DNA of 63,955 bases, the filler included, from Bonamia ostreae (lineage: Eukaryota), in NCBI GenBank assembly GCA_040357525.1. It is 24 parts of 24 records of this genome, joined end to end, with 100 filler letters (N's around TTAATTAATTAA, not from the genome) between each part and the next. Parts side by side here need not be neighbours in the genome. Positions count along the whole stretch, not along the records: positions 48,158 to 50,709 come from JBDODL010000779.1; 23 more parts are not named here. One strand, given 5' to 3'. Numbering within the stretch: position 1 is the stretch's first letter; the number at the start of each line of letters is the position of its first letter. Below the pieces are notes generated by a model. It ran no database searches. It was given only the letters and a program-made list of their open reading frames with translations, and had not been told where the DNA came from. A program made the position numbers and the translations under genes. Below, piece by piece: positions 8,397-58,858 of the stretch.

Positions 8397-9772
8397 CTAC
8401 GCACTCTCCCAGTTGAGTCCATTCACCATGGAGGGAACATGTTGAGTTCAAGGGACCATAAGGAGTATAATTAGTATTGCAGGAGAACGTGACTTCCGAT
8501 CCCACCAACAGGAAGTTTGTTATGTTTTCTAATTTTCCTTTTGTTACAGGTAATAGAGGAGGGAAACCACAGTCTATCAACATAAATGATAACATTCTAT
8601 AAAAAAGACACTCACTGAACATTTGGCTGAACACTAGAAGTATATCCGATTATCACTAAAATTAATATATTGTGCATACATTCATTTAAAAAGTTGCTTG
8701 TAAATTACTGTTATGAATCCAAACGCATATTGCAATAGTTCACAATGGTATCTATTTTGCAAGTCTGAAATTAGTTAGTATGCATAGAGTAACTGGGTGA
8801 TTAAGTCTTGGCATCTCTACATACTGGCGTATAAGCACGTGGCTATCCCCGCTGTGGTGTTCATGCATTTATGTCTCGAAGGACATGGCAAGTTGCAGTA
8901 TTTCAAATATCCTAAAAAGGGCAACAGTTAATAAAATGAAAAATACTTTTACATTATATTAATGTATTCAATTTTGATAAACTTGTTCGAACCATAAGTC
9001 CCAGCTTCCAGGAAAAGTCGCAATACAATGGTGTTTAACTTTGGTCACAGTAATACCGTGAGGTGTTGTAAAAAGTAAATTGACATCTAGAAGTGAAAGG
9101 AGCTAAACACTTCGTGTACAATTAGATATGGAAATATTTTCATAAAATGTTCAGATATGGAGTCACTATTTGATTTATGTTTACTTGGTTCCTGAGATTG
9201 ATTCCTATATAAGACAATGTTCTCTTTGACAGAGGCTCTTAATATTGCATTTCATTTAAGTTTAATGGCTTATTAAAGAACCTCATATAGTGTGAAATTT
9301 TTAAAATTCTAAAATCTCTTATTTACCGACAAAAACAGCTTGTTTATTGTTACAGAAAAATATAAAACATTGAGATAAAATTCTGGGTGGTAATTACGTA
9401 TTTCAGTAGACATTTAGACAATCACTGCAATTTAACAGTTGCGTGATGGTGTCCTACCTTGGCATTAGGTACGCTCTTTAGATCGCTCTTTGTTGCATAT
9501 TTGTAGTTTTTCGCATCGAAAACTTCCGAGTCCTCGGTATTCAGTTGACAGATGAACTTCTCTATGTGGTAATCAACAGACAAACAGTCATGGTACAACA
9601 GACACTCTGCAGCACACATGTTAACACCGATGTTTGGGATCTCCAGCAGTGTCTCCGAGACAATCCTCTTGTCGTGTTTATTCACACTGTCTACACCGCT
9701 GACAATGGTAATCATGAAATTCATAATAAACAGCTCCCTTAATGAAGCGGTGACAGGAGTACCCAATAGCAT
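8397..9772 (-). CDS. Animal-type secreted protein with PAN/Apple and Sushi (CCP) domains, partial (host-like)
   Basis: Exon 9458-9772 has the PAN pattern CAAECLLYHDCLSVDY...CQLN. Exon about 8397-8574 is a sushi repeat (DCGFPP...VTFSCNTNY...STCSLHGEW..C). A Cys-rich mini-exon may lie at about 8825-8910. Donors are GTAAG/GTAGG with long introns. Confidence 0.75.
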
Positions 9773-12548: not shown

Positions 12549-12592
12549 GTAGTCTAGTGGTTAGGGCACTTGCATTACAACTGCTAGGTCCG
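12549..12592 (+). mobile_element. SINE head fragment
   Basis: GTAGTCTAGTGGTTAGGGCA matches the head at 2768. Confidence 0.4.
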
Positions 12593-13027
12593 CTTATCCT
12601 TTGTATACTGCGTGCATTTATATACACTTCATGAAACCTAGGATAGTTATAATTTCTATGAGCTTTCTTTACTTTCATTTCCTTTTTCTAAAAAATGACC
12701 ATTGCAATGATGTTTATGAATGCTAATACAACATTCTCAATTCATTTCGCAAATATCAGGGATAGAGAGAGTTTATGAGTCGGAGTACGTACCAGTTAAA
12801 GAATGTTTGTACGAATTAAGTCTAATTCATGAAAAATAATGATACTGTACATTAAATAAATCATTTGTTATATCTATGTGTCAATTGTTGATTTTTTCGC
12901 AAGCAATTTTGGGTCATGGTGCAACAAAATCCCCGACTTATTTAAATCAGAATGAGGATGTCTTGTATATATCTTCAATATCAATTTTGATCAATGATTT
13001 CAACGACAAAGACACGAAAAAGTTAGA

Positions 13028-13095
13028 TTAATTGATTGTGTATTGTTTAAAGTCTCGCTCGAAAAATTTTCTCTGATGTGGAGACGTCAACATTT
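13028..13095 (-). mobile_element. SINE 3' tail fragment
   Basis: Reverse complement TTGACGTCTCCACATCAGAGAAAATTTTTCGAGCGAGACTTTAAACAATACACAATCAAT aligns with 3014-3075. Confidence 0.55.
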
Positions 13096-13490
13096 CCGAT
13101 AAAGGGTGCCAAAATATGCCAGGAATCATATTTGCATCGGTTGTACAATATGATATTGTTATTGTTTCAGACATGGAACAGAACATGTCGATTACAGTGT
13201 AATGTTTCTGTTGAAATCTTTCTTTCACGCGTGATTCAATCTTTTGAAAATAGTTTTATGTACATGAAGAGGTGAAGATATACATAGAAATATTCGGTAT
13301 ATCTTTTTTTTCGCGTCATTTTTATTCTCTGCGAATCAGAAATTAAAACAGTATATTAGTTTACGCGAACTGTATTTTCCCTAATTCAGANNNNNNNNNN
13401 NNNNNNNNNNNNNNNNNNNNNNNNNNNNNNNNNNTTAATTAATTAANNNNNNNNNNNNNNNNNNNNNNNNNNNNNNNNNNNNNNNNNNNN

Positions 13491-13842
13491 AATTTTACAA
13501 AATGTCCTTTCAGCGGGACATTCTTGTTACCGGCTTATGACACGGATTTCCGTTTGAACATGAAAGAGCGTTCGTGGGCAGTTGACAAGGTTGGAGAGAG
13601 TATGATTATCACGCAATCGATGTTTTAACCCGATTTAAAATTTGTCAAATTTAATGAATTAGTTTTAAAATGGCTAAATTCTGATAAAAAGGTACGATCT
13701 TAACAATCCGCAAGTCTATATAAGAGAAGAGAATTTGGTTGTTTACATTGTTCTTGGCGTCGGATTATTTAACTTCTTCGCTTCAATAGCAGTCTCTTTA
13801 ATCTTGCAAAACAATTCGCCGGAAAACATAAATAAAATATAA
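13491..13842 (+). CDS. Nicastrin-like C-terminus (5' truncated)
   Basis: Spliced reading CPFSGTFLLPAYDTDFR...SW...TQSMYDLNNPQVYIREENLVVYIVLGVG+TM resembles the nicastrin PAY..W..TES.W..VY..TM segment; one GT-AG intron at about 13622-13691. Confidence 0.5.
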
Positions 13843-15031
13843 AATCTTTGAATTCCAAAATTTTTTTGATGTGAGGATTTTTTGATTTGATCATGCAATT
13901 TTAACTTATTTTATATTTTTTTTTAAATTATTTTAACCATTTCAGAATTTTAACTTATTTTTACCATTAACGCAATTTTTAGTCAATAAAGATAAAATCT
14001 ATCCACTTGCCATTTCATCCTTTGTGGGCGCGTCGACGCTTATTTTTCGAAAATAAGTCGTTTTAGAGTTTTAACCATTTCTACCATTTCAGAGTTTTAA
14101 CCATTTTATACAAAAACCATTTTTCAATCTGTTCATCGAAAACAAGAATTGTTGAAAGCTAGGACCCCAAGTTTTGCTTGATGCCAAACATTCTCTATAT
14201 TTCTTGAGAGATAACTCTCATTTTTAAGTTTCTCATTTTTTAAATATCTCAATAGATCTTTGCCCTCCCATCGTTATTTAAATTATTAACCAAGATGATG
14301 ACGAGGTTCTTGCAGAATCAAAAATTTTTCTGAAAACTTACAATCGTTAATGAAGTTAAAAAACAAGTTAAAACATATCAATGAATTTCATCCATATGAC
14401 TTATTTTCGTTTTTTCTGTTGCTAAATTTGACTTAATAATAAGTTAAAAAAATTATTTCGTTTGACTTGTTATTTTTAATGTTATTTTTTCCATTTGACT
14501 TATTATTTCCTTGCTAAATTTTTTTCTGTTTTTTTTATCCTTTTTTGCCAATTTTCATTGCAAAATTTTTTATACTTTGTTCAAAAAATTTTTCAGTTTA
14601 CAAAATCATTTAAAATTTAATAACAAGTGCTTTTTAATATGATTAATAGAAAATCTCTGAAAGATAAAATAATTTTTGAAGTGCCAAATTGGCGTTGTAG
14701 TTTTCTTTTGGTTTTCATCCAAAAGTTTTCATCCAAAAGTGAACATCATGATAACGCTAGAATTGATAGTTAACAAATTCATCTTGGCAATTTGTCAATT
14801 TTAATTCGGTGTATATAATCTTTCTTATTCAGAAAAAAATTATGTTGAAATTGTATCTTTGAATTTGTTGCAAGATTTATGCAGGAAAACATTCACTTGA
14901 ACACAGAATGGCGAAATACCAATTTTCGGATGAATTTCAGATGGATCGAATTATTGTTTGAGATTAATGTTTAAGGCAGATTGAACTCAAAANNNNNNNN
15001 NNTTGTAAAGATGCAGAATAGCAAAGACTCT

Positions 15032-15983
15032 TTAATAATGAAGATTTATTTTTAATACTTCAAACTTAGTTTTGCCAAAACATTTTATAAGTTGGGCATC
15101 ATCTGCAGCTTTTGGCAACTCTTTTCCCCAAAGCCTCTTTTCATAATCTGTCTGTAATAGTTTTTCTTTTAAAATTGGAGTGAATTGTTGATCATAATAA
15201 TAAGATTTATTGTTATCGCGAAAAAATTTTAAAAGCTCTTCGGTATTTTGACCATCTGGATAAACTTTACAACAAGCATAAATAAGTAGAACTCCAAGAT
15301 CCCAGGAATCAGTAAAAAATCCAAATATACCGTTTATACGCAATTCAGGCGGTTCTCCCATATTTGACATTTCGATATTTTCTATAGGCGTATTTAGTTC
15401 CAAACATGATTCAAAATTAGAGATTCGAATATTATCGCCACTACTAATAAGAATATCTCTTGGGTTTAAACCAAAATATACATATCCCTGTTCATCGTGT
15501 AAATATTCCAATCCTCGTATTATATTTCGAAAATATTTTTCTAGAAAATTATTTTAAAACTTATCTGGTTTTCTTTCAAATTTTCACACTTAACAATTGC
15601 TCTAAAATTAGATTAAAAACTCTAAATCAGTAGCGCAATGTTCCATTACAAAAAAAGTCATGCCATTAGATTCAAAGATATGGTAAAGTCTGACGATGTC
15701 ACTGGCATTGTCTTCGGCAGCTTTCATTAGAATTTCTCCTTCTTTTGCATTGTAAGCGGTAGAGGAGAAGATTTTGACGGAATATTTTTGACGATCCGCT
15801 TTATCGGTCACTTGATTTTAAATTGAAACTTGTTGTGGTAGTTCCTATATCTGGGTTTAATTTAGGTATCTTTAAAACATAATCCCTCATTGATTTTGAA
15901 CATTGATCACCATGCACTATTTTAATAAGTATAAAAACTTTGACATGTGCATTCTCTAAATTCAGATTCTTTGATAACTTCAT
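15032..15983 (-). CDS. Ser/Thr kinase-fold pseudokinase
   Basis: YSVKIF, IVRLYHIFE, FFVMEHC, PPE and DSWDLG are present. Catalytic loop YFGLNPRDIL (no HRD Asp) and NFE replaces DFG. Introns 15541-15560, 15602-15620 and 15811-15829 (19-20 nt) join the frames. Confidence 0.75.
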
Positions 15984-16814
15984 ATTTTAATTGATTTTTA
16001 ATCTGATTAAATTTTGTATAAAAATTTTGATGATTTTTAAATGATGTTTAAACTTTTGCACATTCCACCGCAAAAANNNNNNNNNNNNNNNNNNNNNNNN
16101 NNNNNNNNNNNNNNNNNNNNTTAATTAATTAANNNNNNNNNNNNNNNNNNNNNNNNNNNNNNNNNNNNNNNNNNNNCTACGTAGAATAATTCATATATGA
16201 TTTGAATTTCTTGTTTTATTTGTAGGTGAAAATGTGGAATGTCCAAAACCTGGTATGTGCTCATAGCTTTAGCATACAGTACAGAAATTATTTTATTATA
16301 TATTATGCCAAACGATGTATTTAAAAGTAATGTAAACATGACGGTCTTGGTTGATGATGCTTTTGGTATATCCTGGCATTATTATGTCTAGTCAAAGAAA
16401 AGCATCCTTCATTTACTTCTATGGAATTCAAAAGTACAATGGAGTATGCCTTGTCTATATAATTCAAAATCACCTTTTTACTGGCGAATCTATTCTTACA
16501 GGTGAATAAATGTATATCTAAGTCATGTAACTAATATCTCCACATTTAAAATGTTATAGGATGTTTTTAATCTATTTATTTGGTATTTAATTACTAAGAA
16601 AATAGTTCAGGTAAGAAAACCGAAAAAATCCATAAAGATACCTAAAATTTTTGCTGAATTCCTAAGGGACTATTATTTTTCTTGATAATTTTTTCCTCAT
16701 TTGTTTCTTGATTGCGCATGATTCGGAAGTCTGGATTAATTTCTGAATGATGAATCCCGTTTTGCCTCTTCTGACTTGGTAGATGTATACCAGACAAAAC
16801 TTTATTTCACTTAG

Positions 16815-17524
16815 ATCCTTGCGGTGAGAAAAATCGTCTGACTCTTCAAATATCCGGAGATCGATCAACAACTTGCAAAGACAAATCGCTGAAACTTTGC
16901 GATTCCGTATTGCGAAGCAGTTGGTATCGACCCATGAAAGGGAATGTTGATATGAAAATGCCAACATCCTGTGTTGAACGAAATAGCTGCGGAACAGAAT
17001 CACCAATCTGGTTAAACGGTAATCATCAAAGAAAATAATGTAATATGATAAAATGCCAATGACTAATAGCTAATAACATTAACATTTGGTTATTACTGCA
17101 GGAGTGGAACCTAGCGTTACCGATAAAACTGTTAATATGAAGGCTTGTGTAACTCTGGGAAGAACAAACGCCTGTTCCTGTGACAGAGAAATAGATATTC
17201 AAGTGCGGAATTGTTCATCATACCTTGTTTATAATTTAACCTCTACCCCAAACTGCCCTGAAAGATACTGCTTCGGTAATATTTACCTTATACTTATGAC
17301 AAGTTTGTTTACTAAGCAACTCATATTCTCCAATTTCTTTTACAATTAAACTTCTTTTCAAACTTTGATGTACTACAAAAAATACCTTGAACGATTTGTT
17401 TACAATATAACGTACATATTTATTGATTGATAACAGTAGTACACTTTTCATATTTTGAAAATGTTTTTAAGAATATTTCTTTTGAACACAGGGCAATCGG
17501 GGAGATGTTTTGATGATGTCAAAG
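16815..17524 (+). CDS. Uromodulin/GP2/OIT3-like D8C-domain exons (host-like)
   Basis: Exons 16815-17018 (DPC...CDSVL..WYR..MPTSCV..CGTESPIWLNG), 17102-17275 (ACV...IQVRNCSSYLVYNL..P.C..RYCFG) and 17492-17524. Confidence 0.8.
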
Positions 17525-18857
17525 GTGAGCTGTAATAATGTTTTATCAAAATAATTGAAAAATTGTACTTTGATATTGAAAACACGCCTACATTTGTAAT
17601 TGATATATAAAATCACAACACATACCGTATTGACTACACTATGAAGACCAGCACAGTTTCATCCATAACATATACAATGTTGAATGGGCAAAATCATTTT
17701 GAAGAAAGTCATCGATGCATAATTGATATAGATTTAGTTACGTGTTCTTATTCATCAACAAAAGAACTTCAGATAAATCTAAAATTGAGTGACGTCCGTC
17801 ACTCTCAATCAAGTTTTTACGTTCCATATTACGTTTCCTTTTACGGTCTCCTTCTGTGTAAGCCCTTCATTGCCCTATCTGTAGATCCAATTATCAGTTA
17901 TTCATGCACACGTGATCGACAAAGTGCAGGTTTAAATCATATGTTTCGTCTACGATGGTGTTTTTCCAAGCAATACACATAATTTTATAAGGTTTGCTGT
18001 TCCACACATTCACTTACGTAATTTTACTACCGCTTTCAGATGGGGTAATCAGAAATTTATATTCAATATTTCCGCTTGAATTTGAAATATGACATTAAAC
18101 TTTTTATCCCCAAAATGACATGGCAAATCAGCAAATCCTATCAAGTAGTAAGTTTGTGTTTTCGGAAAAATTGCTGTTCCCCGTCAAAATCGGTAATGTA
18201 ATAACACATATTTTCACTATCATTGCATCAAATATTGACGTTTTAGCAATTGTTAATACAATTATGATAGCATATTGTCCCAAAAATTCAATTAGTTTAT
18301 GACGTAAGTATCAGTAAATATTATCAGTGTTGGGGTAATGTTTACGCGTTTCTCGATTGACAGGAAATAATACGAGGAGATACCGCATTTTGTGTAATTT
18401 TTGCTTCATAGAAAGGAAAGTTAGAGATAAATTAGAATGAACGTAGATTTTCCCTATGTTAAGGACACTTCTCTCCTTAGAGCGCAGATCTACGATGAAA
18501 TTATTTAAAGCTGCATATTCAATGTAGTTGAGTTGAATCATTTTAAAATTTCAAACAATCTGGGAGAAATTAGCTTTGTAATAAATTCATACGCTATAAA
18601 TTATATTCCGTAAGCAAACATTCCTTTAAATGTTGGATATTTCGATTACATTTAAGTGGGAATGTGAAGATACCGAAAAAATGATCAATCTCATAACATA
18701 GTGTAGTTTGATAAAACCTTGGTATAAGCTATGAATAAGCTTCAAAATACCTTACAGNNNNNNNNNNNNNNNNNNNNNNNNNNNNNNNNNNNNNNNNNNN
18801 NTTAATTAATTAANNNNNNNNNNNNNNNNNNNNNNNNNNNNNNNNNNNNNNNNNNNN

Positions 18858-19987
18858 GAAATAACTAAAATAAACGACAAAAAAATAAGTCCTTTTGTTG
18901 TCCCTTCTATATCAAATAAAGCATCTTCAATAACAAGTTTGCTCTTCGGTTTCAAAGGTCCTTCGATTTCTCTTTTTTCGGCTTGTGCCACTGGAAGCCA
19001 CAGTGTCTCGATTGCGAGCGATTTTATTAAACTGGATCGAGCGGATGTCATGATTTGTGGCGGCGCTGAGAAGACGAATGGCGTTTCTCTGATTCATTCT
19101 GGATTTAAATCTTGTTTGGCGTTATCGAAGCGGTTTGACGAAATGGAGAAAAGTTCGAGGCCGTTCGATGTGAAACGTGACGGCTTTGTGTTGAGCGAAG
19201 GGAGCGGTGTCTTGGTTTTGGAAGAATTGGAGTTTGCGAGAAAAAGGTTTTTATCTCTAAATTTTGAAGAGGAGCAAAAATTTATGGAGAGATTTTGGGA
19301 AGTGGGATGTCAAACGATTCTTTTGATATTACAAAACCTTCAGGGATCGGGGCTCTTTCTGCAATGCAAAATGCTTTTAATTCTGTAAGAAATAGCAAAG
19401 TTTGTTTTTCAAAATTTGATATTTGTGCAAAAAACGATTAAAAAAATTGGTAAAATTTGATATTTGTGCAAAAAAACGATTAAAAAAATTGGCAAAATTT
19501 GATATTTGTGCAGTAAAACGATAATAAAAAAATTGGTAAAATTTGATATTTGTGCAAAAAAAAACGATTAAAAAAATTTGGTAAAATTTGATATTTCTGC
19601 AGTAAAACGTAAAATCTTAAGTTTTCAAAAAACGATATTAACTTCATTGTCGCTCACGGCACATCCACCGTAATCGGCGACAAAGCCGAAACCGAAGCTT
19701 TAGTCGATTTTTTCGGAGAAAAATCAAAAGAAAAAATGACTTTTTCGACAAAAGGTGCTTTAGGCCATACGATTGGAGCGTCTGGAGCGATCGACTTAAT
19801 AATCGGAGTCAAAGCTTTAAAAGAGAAAAAAATCCCAGCGACGAAAAATTTGGAAAAAGAAATTGATTTAAAAATAGATTTTGTCAAAAAAGAATCGCGA
19901 AAAATTGCGACGAAATGTTTTTTGGCCAATTCGTTTGGTTTCGGAGGATACAATTCTTCTATTATCGTCGGAAATCAATTTTTGTAA
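18858..19987 (+). CDS. OXSM: Mitochondrial 3-oxoacyl-ACP synthase (KAS II/FabF type), 5' truncated
   Basis: SACATG (catalytic Cys), SRPFDVKRDGFVLSEG, AHGTST, STKGALGHTIGASG, NSFGFGG; introns 19247-19269 and 19400-19621. Confidence 0.9.
19410..19610. repeat. Intronic minisatellite, about 41-nt unit, about 5 copies
   Basis: Repeats of AAAATTTGATATTTGTGCA...AAACGATTAAAAAAATTGG inside the OXSM intron. Confidence 0.9.
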
Positions 19988-21432: not shown

Positions 21433-23674
21433 NNNNNNNNNNNNNNNNNNNNNNNNNNNNNNNNNNNNNNNNNNNNTTAATTAATTAANNNNNNNNNNNN
21501 NNNNNNNNNNNNNNNNNNNNNNNNNNNNNNNNACACATTCAGAAATAAGATGATTTGAATTTTCAACGGATTTGCTGTGCGTTTTACAGATGGCATTTTA
21601 GAGTTTTCTAAAAATACGTATTACATATGAAGTAATTATTGGAAAGTGTGTTTTGGTTTAGTTCAAACGTGTTATGCATAGCATTTTGTTTATTATTTTT
21701 TCTGTAACCTTAGGTATATAATGTATGTGCACACTTTAACAAAAACAGATTTATTTTTCCAGACATTAACGATTCCTCAAACAATACAGGGCGTCCAATG
21801 ATAAAACGGGGGAAAGAATGCAAATTCCAAGTTGTAAGATATATCGATATTGCACATGTTTCAATATGTATAAAGCAGTGTTGTAGAAAATTTGTAAAAA
21901 TACTCATACAATGTATAATTGTAGATTATGTCACCGTATAAAGGTGGACCGGACTGTGATATGTGCGGTTACACGGTGAGTTGTCATGTAATACAAATAC
22001 AAGACTTAGCCATCACAGAGACACATTTTGCAAATGATATTTGCATGCAAGGTGAATCAAGATTGATCTAGCTGTAAGGAATTAGAAACTCAAAGAACTC
22101 ATTTTATTCAATAATTGGCCCACCTTTGGATTCTTACGCAAGAATCAAATCAAATCACAAAAAGAGTTACTAAAATGAGTTCAAACGATACCCAAATAAC
22201 AATACTGAAAATTGTAAAACCATGATCGAGCAGCTTACCCATAGTTATGCATTGTACATATTTTTTTGGGTCCTGTTAAAATAAAGATTCAATCAATAAA
22301 ACAAATTCAACTGTGAATTCACAAAAACAAAATAAATATGTATCTAATGATTACAAGTAGTTCCTATGTAGGTCGCGGTAGACTGAGTGGATAACTATCA
22401 AAGCTGTTGTACTCAGACACAGTAAAGAATTATCGAGCCTAGCAGCCACGAGTCCCGATCCGTTTCAAAAGTCGCAGACACACCATTACCAACAGTTACC
22501 AAGACATTTTTTGAAAAGCCTAATCACACAGACACAAAACCATGCTCAGAAACTCGAAAGGGTAAATTAAAAATTATGTAGCCTTAGGCACAGTCCCCAG
22601 ACTTGTTTGGGCGCAGCACCCACTCTCAGAATTATGTGGGTTCTGATGAATATTATAGTACGGTTATATTTATGTCTTTTGCCTCAAGTTGACTGCCTAA
22701 TCCATTACTCCTGAATGGCTAAACTACTTCATTCTGGTTGATTACTGATTTGAGGAGTTCCAATGCACCGTTTTACATTGTCACCTCCTTGTAGGAATGT
22801 TTGAGATAAAAAGAACCAACGATTCGTATAATGCAACAACTAAATATTTAGACCGACTGCTTGTCTGGTATAGAATGCTGGTCATGCCGGTCATAGACTT
22901 TGAATCATATAAAGACGGAGTCACTACTACGTATACAATGCAGTAACATACAACATTTTATCAACTAAGTTACGCAGGTGTAGAATTTATGTCAAATTCA
23001 ATGTTAGATAACTTTAACCCGAACTTCCAAAATTATCATACACTCTCTTTGGATCGATCCGTAAGATCAATTTGATTGTCGCCTTATTCATATCCTACAC
23101 AATGGTATATCAATTATTACAAATGCAATTATTAAAAATCGCCACTTAAATGTGTTAACATTGAGGATAGATACAGTCTGTAGGAGTTTAACCACTTCAT
23201 GCAGTCCAAAAGTTGATAGGAAGTTTGTCTTAACAGCAATTACATTTAAACTTGTCTTCATTGTTACATAAACATGCCTGAAAATACTTTACGTTATATT
23301 ACGGGTACTTTATAATGAATGGCAATGTTATGTTCAGTTATTCGATCGAATTCGAAAATAGAGCTAAGGATTTTCTTTGTTAAACCCGACTTTGAATATA
23401 TATGCTCTAATGTATCATTGTAATTTATGTAACTTGTTGAAGGCAATTGTGTTTACTTACCTACTGATAAGGGTATACATGCTGTTTGACACACCTAATA
23501 TTCATTTTTTTAACCTTAAATATGTACCGTATTTATATTTATCTTTATATAATGCGTGTTTCAGATCCATATCTGTATGTATCTATATAATCTTTAATGT
23601 CTTCTGTGAACTGTAGAATTGTAAAATAGACTTCCATATATATTTAAATTTATCGCATAAACGATCCTTAATAG

Positions 23675-23851
23675 GCAGTTGCGAGGGCATTCGACTGCTC
23701 TCATTGCTTTTGTTGGAATTGCTTGGTGACGTTAAGAGACAGTTCAGAATCCATGGGAAGTGATGTAGACTGCATTCCCAATTGTACCTCCTGGCTGACT
23801 CGGAAGACTATTCAGAGGTTCCTACAAGATGATGAAATTTCGAAGAAACAC
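23675..23851 (+). CDS. RING-finger-like exon (host-like)
   Basis: AG|...|GTAAGT-bounded 177-nt exon encoding FDCSHCFCWNCL...DCIPNC. Confidence 0.55.
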
Positions 23852-24290
23852 GTAAGTTCCATTTATCCATAGATTTTACCCTTTTTGTTATAAATTGAAG
23901 ATCACTAATACACCTTCAGTAAAATGATAAATGTTACTTAATCAATTGCAGACATCCCTTTATTTCAAGCTGATTTATGAAACTGAAAATTGTCAGGCAA
24001 ATGGCTGTTCTAATAAGGTAATTCTACTTCATTTATCACTTCTGAGTTTGGTTATATCCTGATATCAGTTACAAACTCAAACAATAGTCTTTTGTGATAT
24101 GTANNNNNNNNNNNNNNNNNNNNNNNNNNNNNNNNNNNNNNNNNNNNTTAATTAATTAANNNNNNNNNNNNNNNNNNNNNNNNNNNNNNNNNNNNNNNNN
24201 NNNTTCACGAAATTTGAATATATTTTTGTTGTCAATGACTTTATAAATTATCAAGAATATTTTTATTTATTTGATAAATCGAAACGCAAA

Positions 24291-24818
24291 ATGCCCGCAA
24301 AAATCTCAGATTTGTCAACTGCGAAAAATGTTGATTTGGAAAAATACCAAGGTCAATGGTATGAAATCGCCCGCATTGAAAATTATTTTGAAAAACGCTG
24401 CGGAGTAGGCGAAATGGCCCCGATAGCTGTTTACTCTTTGAAACAAAACAATATTTTTGGAGTAATCAATTCCTGTCGTCAAGTAAAAAACAACAAAATA
24501 AAAAGAGTTTCTGGAATTGCAATTGTTCTAGATTCTCCAAACAACGCCATTTTTCACGTAAATTTTGTACCTATAATTAAAAACTTTCCTTCTATCATAA
24601 AATTCTTTGTGAAAACGGGAAATTATTGGATACTTAAAGTCATTTTTCGTGAAAACAACAGCTACAAATATGACCTGGCATATGTTTGTTCTCCAGACAG
24701 AAGATGCCTTTGGTTTTTGTGCAGAACTAGCCAAGTAACAGAAAAAGAATACGACGATTTTGTCGAATTTTCAGAGAAGCAGAAATTCGATTTGACGAAT
24801 CTTAAAAGAGTTCGATAA
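24291..24818 (+). CDS. Lipocalin (Blc/ApoD/TIL-like), no signal peptide visible
   Basis: VDLEKYQGQWYEIARIE, GNYWIL, SPDRRCLWFLCRT. Confidence 0.9.
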   Translation: MPAKISDLSTAKNVDLEKYQGQWYEIARIENYFEKRCGVGEMAPIAVYSLKQNNIFGVINSCRQVKNNKIKRVSGIAIVLDSPNNAIFHVNFVPIIKNFPSIIKFFVKTGNYWILKVIFRENNSYKYDLAYVCSPDRRCLWFLCRTSQVTEKEYDDFVEFSEKQKFDLTNLKRVR

Positions 24819-24904
24819 TGGTGAGATTAAATTATGACGTAAAATTTGCTCTTTATTTATCCTTGCAATGCAACCGTTAATTGTTTGTTAATTTATTATA
24901 AAAG

Positions 24905-25535
24905 ATGACTCGCATCCGTGAATCAATACGTGTTTTTTTATATGTCAGCATCCTTTTTCTGGTGTCAACAACACAATCCAATAACAACGAAGAGTTTTTA
25001 TTTTTAAAGAAGATTGGAACCATTAACGACCGCAGAAAACGTAGATTTGAATAAATACATCGGAGAATGGTTTGAAATAGCACGAATAGAAAACAAATTC
25101 CAAAAGAAATGCGGAGATGGAATAAAAGGATCCATTGCAAAGTACACCTTGTTAAAAGAAAATCTAATTTTAGTTGAAAATTCGTGTTGTGAAAAAGTAA
25201 GCGGAATGTGCCCGATCACTAAAGGAAAAGCTTTTGTGGTCAATTCTTCTGACACATCTAAACTCAACGTTCTCTTCATCCCTTTAATAATGGACCTTCC
25301 TCCCCGTTTCCTTAAAATATTTGTCAAAATGGGGAATTATTGGATCTTGAAAGTGATCACAAGAGAAAGTGGTTCCGAAAATTACGATTTGGCGTACGTC
25401 GCTTCGCCAAATAGAAAGTATTTGTGGTTATTGTCCAAAACAGAAAGTGTAACAGAACAAGAATATGCCGATTTCATTTATTACGCCCAAACGAATAATT
25501 TTAACTTAACCAATTTAAGACGAATTCGTACTTAA
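24905..25535 (+). CDS. Lipocalin paralogue with signal peptide
   Basis: ATG 24905 encodes MTRIRESIRVFLYVSILFLVSTTQS. Tiny intron 24994-25012 joins to VDLNKYIGEWFEIARIE...GNYWIL...SPNRKYLWLLS. Confidence 0.88.
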
Positions 25536-25689: not shown

Positions 25690-26685
25690 CTAATTAAATT
25701 TACTGAAAAAGTGCCTTAAATCCAACACGACAACAGTGATATTATCTGTTGAAGCTTCGTTGAATGCGAGCAATCCGAGTTCCCAAGCGGCTTGATTCAT
25801 GTCTTTCGCGTAGAAGGCATCGGATTTCAAGATCGTCTTCGAAGCCGTTTTATTGTCGATGACATCCCAAACACCGTCAGTGGCGAGAATCAAAAACGAG
25901 TCCTCTTTTAATTACGCGAAAACCTTTTTTTAAATCTATCGATTTTATTTCCGGGTCGCAAATCGCGTACTTTTTAAATTCTATATCTCCTAATGCTCTC
26001 GACACAGCTAGTTTCCCTTCTATCCTCCTTTTTGTGAAAATGTACATATACAAACCAAGTACCAAAACTGTAAGAGACACGGCCGCCGAGACTCGAAATT
26101 CTTTTGAATTCGTCAAATTTGCCAGCTTTGTGGTCATTCGAAAGGGGTTCACTGGCTCCACCTTTTTTTACAAGAACCGCCCTCGAATCGCCCGTGTTTG
26201 CTATATACAATGTTTTTTCTGCAACAACGGATACCAACAACGTTGTACCATCCCTTAACTTTCTTTTTCTCGCAATTTCGAGGAATCGCTCGTCCAACTA
26301 ACAGAATTAAATTGAATTCGCAAACGTTGTGAAAAGTGGAAGACAACGCTTCTTTAATGCTGTTGCAGTTGCTCAATTCTTTTTTGAATTCCTGTACAAA
26401 TCTTCCAGACACGAATTTCGCTGTGCTAATTCCGCCATGTCCATCCAACACTCCTGCGACGAAGATTGATTGTTCGCCATGTTTGAATTCTCCGCTGAAA
26501 TGGTCGTCTTCCATTGTGGACCTTCTGCCCCTCATCGAGGCTATTCCAGTTATTGAACCGAAACTCGAAATTTTGTGTTTATAAAAAGCGCTTGTTTTGT
26601 TCGTTAAAAACTTTCGTGTCAGTATAAAATAAAAAGCGACGGATGAAGATATGAGAATGCCGAGAAGAGTAATTATGGCCGGCAT
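25690..26685 (-). CDS. PP2C (PPM) phosphatase with N-terminal membrane anchor (PPM1L-like)
   Basis: GRRSTMED, DGHGG, ANTGDSRAV, LAVSRALGD, LATDGVWDV, STDNITV; introns 26298-26325, 26028-26055 and 25905-25923. Confidence 0.93.
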
Positions 26686-29441: not shown

Positions 29442-31951
29442 NNNNNNNNNNNNNNNNNNNNNNNNNNNNNNNNNNNNNNNNNNNNTTAATTAATTAANNN
29501 NNNNNNNNNNNNNNNNNNNNNNNNNNNNNNNNNNNNNNNNNTGTATGTCAGAAGATCATGACGTTTTAGGTAAATTTTCTACGAACCCACTATTTTAACT
29601 CCTAAAGAAAATATTAACTGCCGTGAAGGATTAATTCAAAATGTAACTTGGCTAAACGTACTAGTCTTAAGAAATGTAAAGAACGTTGAGTAAATCTGAA
29701 ATTGAAAACCTTTCCAAAAAAACAGCATTAAAAGTTAGGAGTTTTCAACACTTCAGTACACTTCTATACCTCACAATACCATAAGGGGGGGGGGGGTGAT
29801 GTCATAGACAAATGTTTCAATATTCCTACTCCGTTCTTCCTTTGTGATGAATCATCCAAAAACAACTTTGTTAAACATCATTCAGACTATACTCATTGTA
29901 TATTCTAAGACAAAGATTTGTGATTTACAGATCTTGGACATCGCTGAGATTGCTTATTGTTCATTACATTCACCTTTCATCAAAACAGATATAAATTAAA
30001 TATAATAGGGATGCATTACACACTATGTCCATATATTTGCAGCATAATCACGGTATGAAAACATATTTCTTTGTGTTTCCAAATGAAAAATATTAAGCGT
30101 TGACACATTGAATAAAATATTGGGTAGACGTAATTTCCTCTGATGATTTTAGATTTTTGAAAATTTGAAAATTGATTATAATATCCGTCAAATATTTCCT
30201 GATTAGATTATCTTTTGAAGTTTTTATTAAAACAAAACTGGTGTGACAACGTATAACGGGACTTAGACCATTGTTCCCATTTTCAAAAGAAAAGTGTGGG
30301 AGTGGAAGGGAGATTGAAAATGACCCCAGTAAGGATTAAAAGTTACAAATATCATTGAAATTATTACTTTTGTTAGTTACTATTTACTGCCATAATTTTG
30401 AAAATCTTTACTTGCTATGACTATGTTCTACTGAAGTCAAACGTTTTGAGATTAATCATTGATTGATATCTTCACTGTTTAAAATATTTGCGATTAAACA
30501 GATACATTGCTTAGATGTTATCTTAGCGTACCTGATTCCAATTTGATTTTTCAAATTAGTTTACTTCTCGTGAGCAATGAAATCCCAGATCACTTCCCGT
30601 TCTCAATATTCCAGTTGTCTTGTTATTTTAAAAAAAAATGTTACGGACATCAAAAACAAAAATTACTCTATAAGATGTAGAATTAGCGCAATTTGAGCAT
30701 TCTATATCAGATTTGGGAAGTCTACCGAAACCCACTCATAATGCGAACAATCTATAATTAACGACGAATCTCCTTGGTGGTGGGATTTGGTTGAATAAGT
30801 CATTTCTAGTTTTACCATACTCAACTGAAATTATACTTTTGAAAAAATGGGGGATAAGAAAAAGAGTGTTGTAAGATTCAAGACGAAAACACGATACATC
30901 TTTGATGAAAATCATCACAATGAGTTTGTTGATAAACGTTATTTCTAAATAAAGTCAAAGAAACAGGAAATCAAAAAATCATGTAGGGTTATGTGAATAT
31001 ATCTACCGGATATCTCTGAGGAGGTAAAAGTCTTCTTACACACTAAAATGTTAGAATTGATCAAATTCATATACGAGGAGTTTCATGTAATGAATATTCT
31101 ACTTATTTTGCTCATTATTCAGAAAAATATTTTTGTGAAAAACAGTTAATATCTGTCAATTTGAATGATACGTAATTATCGCCTGGTGTATGAATAATAT
31201 TATTTGAAATTCGGCTTCACTATAAGGGCTTAATGCGTTACACTTATGATGCTTTAGGCTTGAATCTTGGCTTGGCTTTTGAATCTCGTTATTTGGTGTA
31301 AACATGTTATTTAAAAACGATTTACACATACTGAAGTCACAAATGATAAAAAATACAATGTTTAAGTAAATCTCTAACATCATGTTGCAGTCCATAACTG
31401 TGAATATCTCAATATCAATCGCATATTTTTCTTAATCAGTCAAATACTAACGTTCTAATCCGGCACAAAGCTAAACCTTTAGTAACATACAATTTGGCAA
31501 ATTGTCACCTCGTCCAAATAAACTTTAACAGAAGCCAATTACTTTGTGTTAATCAGCGCGCACATTACGCATCACTGCTATGCGATGCATAATGAAATGT
31601 TGACGAAAATTTGCAGAATCTGAAAATTCGAAGTTTTGCAGTAGATTTCACATTGTTGAATAACCTTTTGCTTACCTACTTTACTGCTATATATTTTTCG
31701 TAAAGTTTCATTTGCCAACAAGTTATTTGTACGAGTATTTCTTCTTGCTTTTATTTTTTAAATTGTTACTATTAGATTTTTTTTTTTTACAATTACGCAA
31801 AGACTTTCTGCATAAATTCCAGGGTTCTTATTGTGCTAACGCCTATTGTGGCAGGGATCTTTTAGCTAACAAAATCGTGATTACCATTTCTGAAGCTGGG
31901 CACTTGGTATAGAAAATGTCGCTACCTACGTTAAATACCGTAAGTTAGAGG

Positions 31952-32030
31952 CGAATTCAGGATCGAGAATCGAACCCCAAACCTCACAGTTGCACATGGA
32001 ACGTCCTCACCACAAGACTACCGCTACTGG
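31952..32030 (-). mobile_element. tRNA-derived SINE head with A/B boxes
   Basis: Reverse complement CCAGTAGCGGTAGTCTTGTGGTGAGG...GGGGTTCGATTCTCG; same family as 2761. Confidence 0.55.
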
Positions 32031-32461
32031 TAAAACAGAAAGATTGAAGAGGTAATTTAGAACGTAGTCTGATCGTTTAGTCTAAGTTCTGTTTGTGCGC
32101 CCTCTACANNNNNNNNNNNNNNNNNNNNNNNNNNNNNNNNNNNNNNNNNNNNTTAATTAATTAANNNNNNNNNNNNNNNNNNNNNNNNNNNNNNNNNNNN
32201 NNNNNNNNTGTCATTAAAAAAATCGATTTTAAAAAACGTCAAAATTTACTTTCAGTATTCGATAAATATGTTCGAAAAATAGATTTTCAAAGCAAATTTT
32301 ACTTTTTATAAAAAATCTATTTCCGTTTTCCCACAAAAAGTAAATTTCCAAAACAAAAAAAATTAGCGACAACGATTTTAAAATGAGCGCCAACGGCAAA
32401 ACAAAAACGGAGAACGATTTTACAATTTTAAAAAAATGCGATTATCGACAAAAATTGCAGA

Positions 32462-33821
32462 TTATTTATTCGATATTTGAATAAACGGAGGAAATCCACT
32501 GAAAACACGAATCGATCTTCCAAACGTCGATTTTAAATAAACATTCTTAATATATTTCTTTTTGCTCACTTTTTCCGGTTTCAGCTGCAAAATCTTTTCA
32601 CTCGCTTTTCTTTAAATTTGGGATTAAAAAATATGGCAAACTTTATATTGTCAGTCAATTTCTGGTCACACATCGAAAACTAAATTTAAAATGATAAATT
32701 TTAATTGATTTAAACAGTTCCAACTGCGAAGGATGCGATTGATAATCTTTTGGTGTGAAAAGTGACAAGTTTGGAGGTGGCGTTTTTTATGGTCTCTTCC
32801 AAGTTGTCATCTAAAACTAAAGTTTTCATATTTCTGTTTGGAATTTTCCCGCTCATTCCCAGCTTCCTCGCGATGGGAGGGAGTAGGCCCATTCCTTTTG
32901 CTGTTGCTACTACAAAATTTACTTTTTTCAGATTTTCTTCGTCGTTGAGCTTTTTGTCGATTTTTTTGTTTTTAGTTGTAAAAAACATTTTTTTCGTTTT
33001 TTTTTTCGTTTTAAGCTGTAAAAACATTTTTTTCGTTTTTTTGTTTTAAGTTTAAAAAAAACATTTTTTTTGATGTTTTTAGTTGTAAAAAACATTTTTT
33101 TCGTTTTTTTGTTTTAAGTTCTAAAAAAACATTTTTTCGTTTTGTCGTTTTAAGTTGTAAAAAACATTTTTTTGTTTTAAGTTTAAAAAAACATTTTTTT
33201 GTTTTGTTGTTTTAAGTTGTAAAAAAACATTTTTTGTTTTGTCGTTTTAAGTTGTAAAAAACATTTTTTTGTTTTGTCGTTTTAAGTTGTAAAAAACATT
33301 TTTTTGTTTTTTTGTTTTAATTTGGAAAAAAGATGATAATGAAAAAGGGAAGGAATAAGAACATAATCGATAGTTTTCTGAGAGCCAGCTACGATGGGAT
33401 TAGCTTTAAGTGCTATCTCGACTTCATCTTCAGCGCACAAGACGGCGACATTCTTCTTGATACCGTGATCGTGTGTAAGGAGAATTCCTGCTCTTATGAT
33501 TTGGTTGCTGTTCCGAGGATCGAGGTTTAAAATATATTTTATCTGCAAAAATTGGCAAAAATTAAAATTTGGAACTTCTAGTGATTCTCCTTTGTTCGGA
33601 GCAAGTCTCCGCGCATATTTGACGGCATCGACTAAATGCATTTTTTTCAAAGGGAATTTTTTATTCAAAAATTTCCTTTGTTCCAAATTTATCTGTGGAC
33701 CGAATTTCGGTTTCGCTGAATTTTCGTTTTCCGCGTTTAGTTTGATAAATCTCGGAAATTTTTGCATAATTTTACGCAATTTCGGTTTTTCCTTATAAAA
33801 TCCATTTCTAATTTTAATCAT
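32462..33821 (-). CDS. MRPL1: Mitochondrial ribosomal protein uL1m
   Basis: LNLDPRNSNQIIR, VVATAKGM..L..IARKLG..GKIPN and KPE..KYIKNVYLKSTFG (spliced C-terminus, stop at 32462); several GT-AG introns including in-frame 33543-33575. Confidence 0.85.
32970..33320. repeat. Intronic minisatellite, about 30-nt unit, about 10 copies
   Basis: Repeats of GTTTTAAGTTGTAAAAAACATTTTTTT inside the uL1m intron. Confidence 0.9.
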
Positions 33822-47234: not shown

Positions 47235-47552
47235 GAAGACGAGGTTTGATAATAATATTACTAAATTTTTAATTATTGTAATTAAATTTTACTATTTTTA
47301 CATTAATTAAATTTATTTGGTCTAACAAATTTCAAATTAGAAATTCATTTTGATACGATCAAAATTGGCTAAAACATTTAAAAAAATTGCTTAGTTCGAT
47401 AAAAATTTTTTGTCCAGGTTTACTCGAAAAAATATCAGGAAAATCAAAATATCTTGTAGTTGCTGCCATCAACTTAACCAAATCAATTTTGAAAAATCTG
47501 GTCATTTTTAAGTAGTTTTAGGATATTATGAATGATAAAAATGTTTTGTTAT

Positions 47553-48057: not shown

Positions 48058-48176
48058 NNNNNNNNNNNNNNNNNNNNNNNNNNNNNNNNNNNNNNNNNNN
48101 NTTAATTAATTAANNNNNNNNNNNNNNNNNNNNNNNNNNNNNNNNNNNNNNNNNNNNAAATTAAAATTTTAATTTT

Positions 48177-49106
48177 ATGATCGTTTCCATCGCAGTCTTA
48201 TTAATGCTCTTTTTGCACAACGCAAAACTATTTTCCTTCAAATCAAATTTCATACATCCCATAAAAATCGAAACTATAGAAAAACCAATTTATTACATCG
48301 ACAATTCAACAAAAACAAAAATTCCTCTCGCGCACTCTTTTACATTAACTGCTTTTCCCGAAAAACCCCAAACCACTTTCTACGAAAGCAAAGATATCTT
48401 AGACGAAAGATTGTTACCGTTTAAAAGGAGGATGTCGAAGCAAGAATTCGAAAAAGGCGTGCGCTTGCTGCAAGCGCTCAGCAAGGCTTTTAAGCAGAAC
48501 AACGTTACTTGGTGGTTATCACACGGCACCTTGCTCGGCCAGCAATATTTCCAATCGGTGATCCCGTGGGACGACGACATCGACATTAAAGTTGTTGGGG
48601 CACAACTCTCGATTTTTAGGATCTTAAGTGACTTTTGCCGCAACAACCCGACATTCAAAGTGAGCACATTTAACTCGAAAAACAGAATGAAAATAATCAA
48701 ATTTTATTTTCGAAACGGAGACGAGATTTCTGGATTCACTCACAAATTCCCTTTTGTGGATATTTTTCCAGTCCAAATCGGGGAAAAAAGGGTTAAACAC
48801 GTTACGAACGCTTTATCGCGGGAAGAAAACCTGGAGGACCTTTTTCCGTTAAAAAATGGGTTGTTTGGGTCATTTCTGTTTCCTATTCCACGGAAGCCAT
48901 TAAAAATTTTGACTCAAAATTACTTTCGTGGCTATGGATATTGGAAATACTGCATCAACGGATACGACCATCGCAGAGAAAGAGCTACAAAAAGAAGCAA
49001 GATTTTAGCAAAATATTTATTTGAACGTTATGGATTTTTCGACCATGAAATTAAGACCTTTAAGAAACCCGGCGGCGATTTTGCCTACGCTTTAACGGAT
49101 ATTTGA
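48177..49106 (+). CDS. LicD-family nucleotidyltransferase (phosphocholine/phosphoribitol transferase-like), signal anchor, intronless
   Basis: WWLSHGTLLG...IPWDDDIDI, PFVDIF, DLFPL...FG...PIP. Confidence 0.9.
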   Translation: MIVSIAVLLMLFLHNAKLFSFKSNFIHPIKIETIEKPIYYIDNSTKTKIPLAHSFTLTAFPEKPQTTFYESKDILDERLLPFKRRMSKQEFEKGVRLLQALSKAFKQNNVTWWLSHGTLLGQQYFQSVIPWDDDIDIKVVGAQLSIFRILSDFCRNNPTFKVSTFNSKNRMKIIKFYFRNGDEISGFTHKFPFVDIFPVQIGEKRVKHVTNALSREENLEDLFPLKNGLFGSFLFPIPRKPLKILTQNYFRGYGYWKYCINGYDHRRERATKRSKILAKYLFERYGFFDHEIKTFKKPGGDFAYALTDI

Positions 49107-49197
49107 CGACGTACTCGCAAATTTAATAAAAAGTCATTACATATTTGTTATTATATCATTTATCTCAATAATCCATCTTTATATCATATATTTGGAG

Positions 49198-50500
49198 ATG
49201 ACTCAAAAAAAGCCGAATGTAGAGAAGCTGTTAATTGATGAATCGAATGCACAAAAAACCATTCTTTTAGACAAAAACTCAATTTCAGGCGGATTTGAAC
49301 AAATTAAAAATATCCTTTGAAAATTCGCAATTAGAAAATTTTAAAATTGATTTCAACTTTAAATATCCTTTGATTACAAATTTCCTTAACAAAATAAACT
49401 GTCAAGTGTAAATAACGGCCTCTGTTTTTTAGACGCGTTAGATTCGGATCGGTCTGTGTTTGAAGACAAATTAGCAAAAATCTTAAAATCAAAAATTTTG
49501 TCGCAAATAACATTTCTTAAACAAAAAAAATTGGCAAAATTGCTCGAAAAAACTTTTCCCTTTTTCGAGATGGCAAATTTCCGAGACATAATTTTCGCCG
49601 TTATCGAAAATTTGGACAAATTGCCAGAAAAGTTTGCCAAAAAATTGGTCAAATGCCAAAACGTTATTTTGCCATTAACGGTCAAAAAGAAAATTTGGGA
49701 AATTGACGAAAAATCATTTGACCGAGAAATCAACCGAATTTTAAAAATTTACTGTGACAGCGCAAATTCAAATTACAAAAAAATTTACCACAAAAAATTT
49801 GTATTCCCAAAAAGCAGGTCTAATTTAGACAAAGCTAATTTTCATTTTCAGTCAATTTTTCCATATTGAAAAAATCAAAATTCGATAATAAAATAAGACG
49901 AAAAGTAAATACGAATCTTCAAATTCTTGTAGAAACAATAAAAAACTCGCAAATTTTAAGTTCAAAATTGATTTACAATTTGGAACAAATTTATTTTAAA
50001 AATTTCGACCGTCTCGTGATGACTCTTCGCTTCGACGCGATAATGGGCTTAAACGACAACGGTCAACAAAATTTGCAGAAAATTGATTATTGTTACAACT
50101 TTATACGTTGCATCGACGATTGCATCACAGAAAACAGAGCTGATTCCAGTCATCTGGATAACCGTTCTAAAATTTGCAAAAATATTTTAAAACGATTTTA
50201 AAGATTTTGAGACAATTTTAAAAATCGATATTGAAAATTTAAAAATACAAAAAATAGTTAAAAATGTCGTACTTTCAGTGCCTGAAGACAAAAACTTGGT
50301 AGCGAAAATGGCAGCAGTAGCTTCAAATCCTTTGTTACGGTCATTTTTGTGCAAGGCGATTTTGCACAGAATAAATGTGGTTGTTTCGAAACAGCAATTG
50401 CCCAAAAAAGATCTTGCGCTTATCTTCTTTTCGCAGCTTTTATTGTTTTCACTCGAAAACAAAAATATTATTAAAGAAGAAATTTCTGTTTATCCGAAAG
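49198..50500 (+). CDS. NELFB: Negative elongation factor B (COBRA1), 3' truncated
   Basis: LLEKTFPF..., VKKKIW...F..EI..ILK.Y, PKS-RRK, TLRFDAIMGLND, ID.CYNFIRCIDDCI are collinear with animal NELF-B; introns 49310-49399 (AT-AC), 49818-49897 and about 50164-50203. Confidence 0.85.
49310..49399 (+). other. U12-type (minor spliceosome) AT-AC intron
   Basis: 5' ATATCCTTTG, branch TTTCCTTAAC at 49381-49390, 3' AC at 49398-49399. Removal joins A|TG in frame and removes the stop codons. Confidence 0.85.
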
Positions 50501-50559
50501 TCATATTTTATCAAATTAGCTTATTTTTAACGGATTTAATTAAATTTTCAAAAACAAAT

Positions 50560-50709
50560 TTTGCCATTAATTTGTTGTTTAATAAAATATCAATATCTTT
50601 TTTGTCCAAAAAATTTGCTATAAATTTGTTATTTTATTTAATATCAATATCTTTTTTGTCCTAATAATTGCTATAATTTTGTTATTTAATAAATTATCAT
50701 AATCTTTTT
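50560..50709. repeat. Intronic tandem repeat (about 3 copies)
   Basis: Variants of TTTGTTATTT..TAAATATCAATATCTTTTTTGTCC. Confidence 0.7.
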
Positions 50710-50844
50710 NNNNNNNNNNNNNNNNNNNNNNNNNNNNNNNNNNNNNNNNNNNNTTAATTAATTAANNNNNNNNNNNNNNNNNNNNNNNNNNNNNNNNNNN
50801 NNNNNNNNNTAATAACAACAAAAGCGCTAAAATGAAAAAATAAT

Positions 50845-51432
50845 TTATTTTTTAGATCGCCTTTTCTTTTTTCGCGTCTTTTTGGCAATTACTTTCAAAA
50901 GCCGTTTGTCTTTTTTGAGTTCTTTGAGCAGTTTGACTTCATCGTAGATTTTCTTCATCTTGACAGGGTTCGTCAGGATTTCTTCGCGCGCGCTGCGCGC
51001 TTTGCGCCCGATTTCGAGCATCGGGTCTTCTCTGAGTTTCGTTTCGTTCTCGATGACAGCGGCCACGCCTTTCAGGTTCGTCGGGTTCAACTTGGCTCCG
51101 ACCGACTCCGTTTCTTGTTTCAACACACTGAGCGCGTTTTCTTGTTTGATTGGCGCTCCCAACATGTACTCTTTCTCGTTCGGCTTTATGATGGGCGTCT
51201 GGTACATCCAGTCCATGCGATCGCTCTCAGCTTTGGTGATGAGGCCGGCCCGGATCTGCTCTTTCTTCAAATCCTCGACAGCTCTTTCTTCTTTGATCTG
51301 CTTCAAATGCTCTTCGATCCGTTTCTTGCGCTTTTTCTCTTTCTGTTCGGCTTTCCAAGTGATTTCCATGTTTTTCATGGACGCTGGATGCCATGGCTTT
51401 TTGTTCAAAAACGCTAAACCTCCTTTTCCCAT
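50845..51432 (-). CDS. CWC25: Pre-mRNA splicing factor CWC25
   Basis: MGKGGLAFLNKKPWHP...WKAEQ, RMDWMY, EYMLG, KLREDPM. Confidence 0.92.
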   Translation of the reverse strand: MGKGGLAFLNKKPWHPASMKNMEITWKAEQKEKKRKKRIEEHLKQIKEERAVEDLKKEQIRAGLITKAESDRMDWMYQTPIIKPNEKEYMLGAPIKQENALSVLKQETESVGAKLNPTNLKGVAAVIENETKLREDPMLEIGRKARSAREEILTNPVKMKKIYDEVKLLKELKKDKRLLKVIAKKTRKKKRRSKK

Positions 51433-52063
51433 TATTAGCTTTTGTCAGTTTATGAAGGTTTGTTAAAGTTGTTTAGAGTTTTAGCATTTTGCTAATTTGG
51501 TAATTTTCTAAATGTGCCCAATTTTAGAATTGCTAAATTTTTTCCCAAAACTGACGAAAAAGGCAACTTCTCAGTCGAAAATTAATATTTTCCAACATGT
51601 TAGTCTTCTACTCGCTCCAAATTTCAATGTAAAGTTCACATCGCCACCGATAAACTTCATTTTCTTTTTTGATAACAACCGGTGCTCTAAGCTTTGTTGT
51701 GTTCATGTGCAGTCATTTACAAAAGACCTGAAATAGTGACTGACGCAATTGAGTAGTTTGTTCTTTTTGCTAAAAATTTGATTTTTCTACTCAATAAAAT
51801 TTGAGCCCGAGTGGAATGATAAAAAATTTCCAAATAATAAAATGCATTGAAAATTTCAAACTGGGAAAGAAATTGAGAATTATAAAATAGCAACTTTCGA
51901 TAAATATTATCTGGAAATAGTTAAAATGTAAAGATGACAATGTTCAAAAACGAAGCCTCACAATTTTGATTAAAATTATTGACTTCATTCGAACAAATTT
52001 TATTGACTCGAAAATTTGCTTTATCAAAAAAGCGCAAAAAGGCAAAATTTTTGTAATTGGCGA

Positions 52064-58661: not shown

Positions 58662-58858
58662 NNNNNNNNNNNNNNNNNNNNNNNNNNNNNNNNNNNNNNN
58701 NNNNNTTAATTAATTAANNNNNNNNNNNNNNNNNNNNNNNNNNNNNNNNNNNNNNNNNNNNAAAATCGATTGAAAAAACAAAACATAAAAAAGAAAATAT
58801 TCAATAATAGACAAACACTTTACCAAAAACCGATTCGATAAAGGATACGTCAAAATCA

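Follow-up and report, generated by a model that had tools for sequence, protein, structure and literature searches.

A candidate U12-type AT-AC intron in the NELF-B gene of the haplosporidian oyster parasite Bonamia ostreae

U12-type introns carry the donor consensus [AG]TATCCTT and the branch-point consensus TCCTTAAC. AT-AC introns spliced by the major spliceosome were reportedly described by Wu and Krainer in 1997; such introns are not known to carry the U12 donor and branch consensus. According to Turunen 2013 (PMC3584512), U12-type introns have a conserved 5' splice site and branch-point sequence, no polypyrimidine tract, and an optimum distance of 11-13 nt between the branch-point sequence and the 3' splice site. 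They are known in animals, plants, some fungi, oomycetes, Blastocystis, Acanthamoeba and Physarum. Within the SAR supergroup, most of what is known of the distribution of minor splicing concerns oomycetes and Blastocystis (PMC5608401), and for the rhizarians analysed by Olthof 2024 the accessible part of that paper gives minor-like introns but no minor snRNAs (PMC11347168). Genomic work on Ascetosporea credits B. ostreae with 'canonical introns', with the term 'U12' absent from its main text (PMC11069148), and for the mikrocytid relatives only U2, U4 and U6 snRNAs were reported and U12 was unmentioned (PMC10245619). Larue and Roy 2023 likewise do not mention Rhizaria in their main text, and no rhizarian clade stands in Table 2 of that paper (PMC10639083). 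The literature searched held no account of minor introns or of a minor spliceosome in Haplosporida / Ascetosporea, and full-text searches on Rhizaria and the minor spliceosome likewise gave no report (supplements may list rhizarian species). In the sources accessible in part, a full-text search gave no report of minor splicing in Plasmodiophora, and no discussion of NELFB as a minor-intron gene was found.

Bonamia ostreae is a haplosporidian (Ascetosporea, Rhizaria) and a parasite of the flat oyster. The whole stretch of DNA that was analysed, called the window here (1-63955; 63,955 nt), consisted of 24 separate contigs of 2,546-2,609 nt in descending size order, joined by linkers of the form N44-TTAATTAATTAA-N44. 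Since the 24 contigs are unrelated, the true genomic context of the NELF-B locus was the contig at 48158-50709 (2,552 nt) alone, and 'genes' adjoining across contigs were not linked. This contig very probably came from Bonamia ostreae, as the public protein P0001, named for this species ('hypothetical protein, partial'), was reproduced letter for letter by 49570-49817 + 49898-50163 + 50258-50562. The features of the contig were:

48165..49106, + strand: LicD-family gene, the upstream neighbour (Pfam LicD, E=1.8e-16)
49198..49309, + strand: NELF-B exon 1, running from the ATG start through 37 codons to the first base of the 38th
49310..49399, + strand: candidate U12-type AT-AC intron 1 (90 nt, phase 1, GC 0.20, five in-frame stops)
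49310..49318, + strand: 5' splice site ATATCCTTT, a 9/9 match to the U12 donor consensus
49381..49390, + strand: predicted branch-point sequence TTTCCTTAAC; A49388 and A49389 are the candidate branch adenosines
49398..49399, + strand: 3' terminal AC, as read in the sequence
49400..49817, + strand: NELF-B exon 2 (homolog HMM; PDB NELF-B match, E=1.5e-8)
49818..49897, + strand: U2-type GT-AG intron 2 (80 nt), part of the public model P0001
49898..50163, + strand: NELF-B exon 3 (Pfam COBRA1, 35.4 bits)
50164..50257, + strand: U2-type GT-AG intron 3 (94 nt)
50258..50562, + strand: NELF-B exon 4, after which the contig ends in a 54-nt tandem repeat

By homology, the gene in 49198-50562(+) is NELF-B. 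The Pfam family COBRA1 (PF06209), which is carried by P0001, matched exon 3 with 35.4 bits and exon 2 with 18.6 bits (cut-off 22), and solved PDB chains named Negative elongation factor B (NELF-B) were matched with E=1.5e-8, with query residue 6 paired with residue 47 of the NELF-B chain. The host's own NELF-B was ruled out as the source (best non-self match of 31-34% identity among 1.84 billion representatives). Removal of intron 2 (49818-49897) restored a conserved P-x-x-R-R motif at the junction. The 53 matches of the NELF-B representative search included many divergent unnamed eukaryotic sequences; with so many divergent eukaryotic matches to the NELF-B of a rhizarian parasite, the distribution of the NELF complex in protists may be broader than is generally described. 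In the homolog P0031 the N-terminus differed, relative to what we take to be the usual animal NELF-B N-terminus, up to the residues just before TENGVLLPSL, which hints that some animals have an exon boundary near the position of the Bonamia junction. The upstream LicD gene ended 91 nt ahead of the NELF-B ATG, and its best matches (29-33% identity) were uninformative as a taxonomic marker.

The segment 49310-49399 begins ATATCCTTTG, with matched termini (AT at 49310-49311 and AC at 49398-49399). TTTCCTTAAC ended 9 nt ahead of the last intron base (49399), and the distance from the candidate branch adenosines to the first base of exon 2 (49400) was 12 nt for 49388 and 11 nt for 49389. Read in the exon-1 frame, the segment held stops at 49318 (TGA), 49342 (TAA), 49348 (TGA), 49360 (TAA) and 49387 (TAA), and its removal created an A|TG codon with an open frame into exon 2. 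The tail of the segment, AAAATAAAC, contained no pyrimidine tract; because the verified U2 introns here also end A-rich, this feature does not discriminate between the two intron types. Donor, branch site, branch distance, matched termini and a continuous homologous frame, on which a U12-type intron is tested, were thus all found. The first-pass annotation had placed the start codon (ATG 49198), the segment, its motifs and its AC end at these positions, all correct to the base. It had also claimed that translation reaches a TGA unless the segment is removed, and the unspliced reading did hit TGA 49318 and then four further in-frame stops; that removal gives an in-frame A|TG joining NELF-B, which agreed with the open frame into exon 2 and with the first rank of this model among eight; and that consensus U12 AT-AC features are present, which was borne out for donor, branch site, spacing and termini.

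Compared with known U12-type AT-AC introns, the Bonamia segment was alike in the extended donor ATATCCTTT, the branch site TTCCTTAAC, the short distance from branch to acceptor, the lack of a pyrimidine tract (not diagnostic here), the AT-AC termini and the information-processing (transcription) function of the host gene. It was unlike them in lineage (Haplosporida / Ascetosporea, Rhizaria), and the Bonamia intron is known from sequence. With AT-AC introns of the major spliceosome it shared the AT-AC termini; unlike those, it had both the U12 donor and the U12 branch consensus. The form of the intron is that of an ordinary U12-type AT-AC intron, and the lineage is what is new.

Homology to NELF-B extended upstream of the deposited model. 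P0001 and the gene model with 49310-49399 removed shared exons 3 and 4, part of exon 2 and the same two GT-AG introns, whereas P0001 started at ATG 49570 and was without 94 N-terminal residues (38 from exon 1 and the junction codon together, and 56 from exon 2). An HMM was built from 52 NELF-B homologs (the 53 search matches minus P0001), with the N-terminal 230 residues of each; on it the reading from 49402 scored 153.7 bits and that from ATG 49570 scored 98.6 bits. The interval 49402-49569 was open for 56 codons, held no in-frame ATG, contributed +55 bits of NELF-B homology and aligned to human NELF-B from residue 47 onward. Because of these +55 bits over a start at 49570 the interval was taken as conserved NELF-B coding sequence, and since 56 conserved residues worth 55 bits are cut from the deposited model, an upstream exon was needed. 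ATG 49198 was the only in-frame ATG opening a frame into exon 2 over a long upstream stretch, and the frame of exon 1 was open to 49317. Exon 1 alone scored -1.2 bits with the 52-homolog HMM, with no detectable homology, and added 2.4 bits to the full model.

The lack of detectable homology in exon 1, together with the start of the public model P0001 at 49570, would fit a downstream start of translation (at ATG 49570 or at a non-ATG codon in exon 2), with 49198-49399 as leader or intergenic DNA. This was considered very unlikely, as 49402-49569 was open for 56 codons with +55 bits and aligned from residue 47 of the solved NELF-B, and no in-frame ATG was present between 49390 and 49569. The first-pass annotation had expected predictors confined to GT-AG introns to truncate this gene, as the public model does by starting at 49570.

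Splice models were enumerated from every ATG after the LicD stop, with GT, GC or AT donors and AG or AC acceptors up to 49434. Forty-two combinations were in frame and stop-free, one of them GT-AG (49230-49406) and four GC-AG, and the extended consensus occurred in 49310-49399 only. When eight splice models were ranked by HMM score, removal of 49310-49399 was best (156.3 bits, vs 152.5 bits for the GT-AG intron and ~146 bits for the models with an acceptor at 49432), the margins being small. The first intron could be read as a U2-type GT-AG intron at 49230-49406 (177 nt), with the U12-like signals inside it due to chance or left by a fossil U12 intron, and with no minor spliceosome in the organism. 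This GT-AG pair was the sole one joining ATG 49198 to exon 2 in frame and stop-free, its donor (GTTAAT) and acceptor (CAAG) resembled verified U2 sites of these contigs (donors GTCTAA, GTTCTA and GTTTG; A-rich acceptors), its HMM score was just 3.8 bits below that of the AT-AC model, and minor snRNAs are not reported for the rhizarians analysed in the accessible part of PMC11347168.

How often the U12 signals would arise by chance was estimated analytically, with first-order Markov statistics taken from the window. Neither 8-mer was enriched ([AG]TATCCTT: 4 seen vs 3.4 expected; TCCTTAAC: 3 vs 1.7). The ordered arrangement of donor, branch site and A[CG] was expected 0.012 times per window, and the chance of the U12 arrangement in the gap of the NELF-B gene, in phase, was ~5e-7. 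The GT-AG intron would need this coincidence of ~5e-7 for perfect, correctly spaced, in-phase U12 signals inside it.

Length of the N-terminus, composition and reading frame also bore on the choice. Forty-three residues preceded the GLCFLD motif with 49310-49399 removed and 14 with the GT-AG intron removed, vs 46 before the aligned motif in solved human NELF-B. Of the 52 homologs, 34 began with M and had 25 or more residues ahead of the motif; for these the median was 57.5 (IQR 48-69) and the minimum 28; the 17 other homologs had <25 residues upstream of the motif and look truncated. The 14 residues left by the GT-AG intron were thus below the minimum of the homologs with a full N-terminus. 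The GC content was 0.20 in the segment, 0.21 and 0.16 in introns 2 and 3, 0.32-0.34 in exons 2 and 3, and 0.29 in 49230-49309, so that the first 80 nt of the GT-AG intron exceeded the 0.16-0.21 of the known introns. This intron would, in addition, stay open in the exon-1 frame for 29 codons past its donor (estimated chance ~0.09, at a stop frequency of 0.08 per codon). Against these values the GT-AG intron was considered unlikely.

The stops could likewise be removed by a non-canonical U2 event, for example a GC-AG intron that ends at 49406 and starts at 49212, 49227 or 49249, or one at 49289-49432. Four GC-AG combinations were in frame and stop-free, and the acceptor at 49432 was preceded by a T-rich run; however, the models with this acceptor lost ~10 bits because the conserved GLCFL stretch was deleted, the other GC-AG models shortened the N-terminus as the GT-AG intron did, and no GC-AG model had an extended consensus. 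A GC-AG or similar event was accordingly given even less weight than a downstream start of translation.

The +1 frame was open at 49271-49411(+) through the whole candidate intron (46 codons), with an exon-like codon score of 7.8, and this was attributed to AT-rich composition rather than to coding. The codon-usage score was not discriminating, because the non-coding 91-nt spacer upstream of the gene also scored ~7.4 in its best frame (AT-rich, 49107-49196). If the segment were nonetheless coding in the +1 frame, the assembly would contain an error, with two compensating indels. That this frame crosses the entire segment uninterrupted, with a codon score of 7.8 that matches real exons, would agree with such an error; against it, two compensating errors would be required within ~100 nt, 30 residues would be inserted where the homologs have none, the non-coding spacer scored equally high (7.4) and the GC content of the segment was intron-like. 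An assembly error was considered the least credible of these explanations.

From the combined signals, 49310-49399 is probably a genuine U12-type AT-AC intron and the first intron of a haplosporidian NELF-B gene (probability of about 0.8). By analogy with described minor splicing, the donor ATATCCTTT and the branch site TTTCCTTAAC would be recognised jointly by the U11/U12 di-snRNP, and U11 would then be replaced by U6atac. The donor would be attacked by the branch adenosine at 49388 or 49389, and the exons would be joined after the AC at 49399. In the predicted protein, 43 residues would precede the conserved GLCFLD motif. We infer from this reading that the RNA is spliced at 49309/49400 and that the organism has minor snRNAs and proteins.

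A genuine U12-type intron at this site would imply a retained minor spliceosome in a haplosporidian, and the locus suggests that this group kept a second splicing machinery so far unreported for it. If so, a rhizarian lineage would be added to those retaining minor splicing, a reduced intracellular parasite would keep two spliceosomes, and NELF-B would offer a concrete locus for testing minor splicing in Bonamia. The truncated NELF-B gene model would also be corrected, and its truncation hints that AT-AC introns may be missed across the whole annotation. These points are relevant to the evolution of introns and spliceosomes and to the annotation of ascetosporean genomes.

The donor motif was duplicated inside the candidate intron: the 13-mer AAATATCCTTTGA was present at 49308-49320 and again at 49361-49373(+), with the copies 53 nt apart. 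When the first and second half of the intron were aligned with gaps, the score was 37 vs 21.8 +/- 4.3 for shuffled sequences (8/2000 shuffles reached 37), with most of the signal coming from the 13-mer. Tandem repeats with periods of 20-150 nt were frequent in non-coding sequence of the parasite contigs. Because such repeats fill other non-coding stretches, introns included, a local duplication was the simplest origin of the second donor, and the copy at 49361-49373 is best explained as a local tandem duplication.

Tandem U12 donors are known as the USSE, a U11-binding pair that activates an upstream U2 3' splice site and acts as enhancer of the 48K and 65K genes (PMC3584512). The Bonamia intron resembled the USSE in that a single transcript would carry a tandem pair of intact U12-type donor motifs, at a distance of 53 nt. 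It differed in its host gene, which was NELF-B rather than 48K/65K or any other minor-snRNP gene, and in that the first copy would be the true donor; although the tandem motifs were present, the pair did not qualify as a USSE. A combined reading was considered improbable, in which haplosporidians, and therefore Rhizaria, kept a working minor spliceosome and the perfectly conserved second donor copy, rather than being a relic of duplication, would offer U11 a USSE-like landing pad or decoy, so that the expression of NELF-B depends on the activity of the minor spliceosome.

Introns of other genes in the window varied in length and content. Tandem repeats filled those of the beta-ketoacyl-synthase gene (19411-19609(+); 4.6 copies with a period of 42) and the L1-like ribosomal protein gene (32961-33331(-); 10.7 copies with a period of 35). 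The PP2C gene at 26010-26345(-) contained two GT-AG introns of 28 nt, both starting GTTTG, which were deduced from frame shifts between ORFs with consecutive parts of the Pfam PP2C profile. An extreme miniaturisation of the U2 introns, as claimed in the first-pass annotation, applied to these two introns of 28 nt and did not extend to those of 80 and 94 nt in NELF-B or to two of ~200-370 nt.

The other contigs of the window yielded no further U12-type intron. Of the further [AG]TATCCT sites, that at 19951(-) was antisense to a coding exon, that at 47526(-) was located after a stop codon, and the remaining ones were in host-like contigs. The site GTATCCTTT at 58841-58848(-) lay 87 nt from the contig edge, after a short ATG-started frame, and overlapped the start region of a long plus-strand ORF; it needed no intron, because the frame stayed open through the motif. 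When the window was scanned for ORF-bridging segments with relaxed criteria, 5 hits in 4 places were returned, with the full consensus at 49310-49399 only; the flanks of the hits at 18640-18443(-), 23579-23678(+) and 31149(+) were not protein-like by eye.

Searches of the window with Rfam returned nothing at the gathering threshold and 7 weak matches at E<=5, none of them an snRNA, and Pfam identified no minor-spliceosome-specific protein in 71 of the 91 window ORFs of at least 95 aa. The 20 other ORFs were in 48165-51463, where the main ORFs were scanned separately, or were shorter ORFs overlapping longer ones, on the opposite strand or in a different frame. The search for transcript-derived proteins across the junction found none, the 90% cluster of P0001 having 1 member, and no other protein of 150-478 aa close to P0001 was found in a set of 5.8 billion sequences. 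A search for relatives in metagenome contigs gave 227 pattern matches, of which 0 were confirmed.

The contig at 48158-50709 terminated within the 54-nt tandem repeat (50556-50709, 2.9 copies) right after exon 4 of NELF-B, and this repeat probably explains the assembly break there. Elsewhere in the window, the contigs at 8116-18757, 21533-24103 and 29542-32108 had few ORFs, unlike the AT-rich, gene-dense parasite contigs, and are probably host (oyster) DNA remaining in the assembly; an exon with a PAN domain (9425-9826(-)) and, upstream of 12522(-), a stretch resembling a tRNA were both in contigs of this kind. At 51478-51609(-), upstream of a CWC25/Cir_N gene, the Flavivirus 5' UTR model of Rfam gave a weak match that was almost certainly due to chance (32.7 bits vs a gathering score of 80, E=0.0095). 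A calcineurin-B-like public protein named for Bonamia ostreae was encoded on the last contig of the window, and a parasite-like contig carried two tandem bacterial-type lipocalin genes at 24204-25532(+) (Pfam Lipocalin_2, 96.7 and 93.8 bits).
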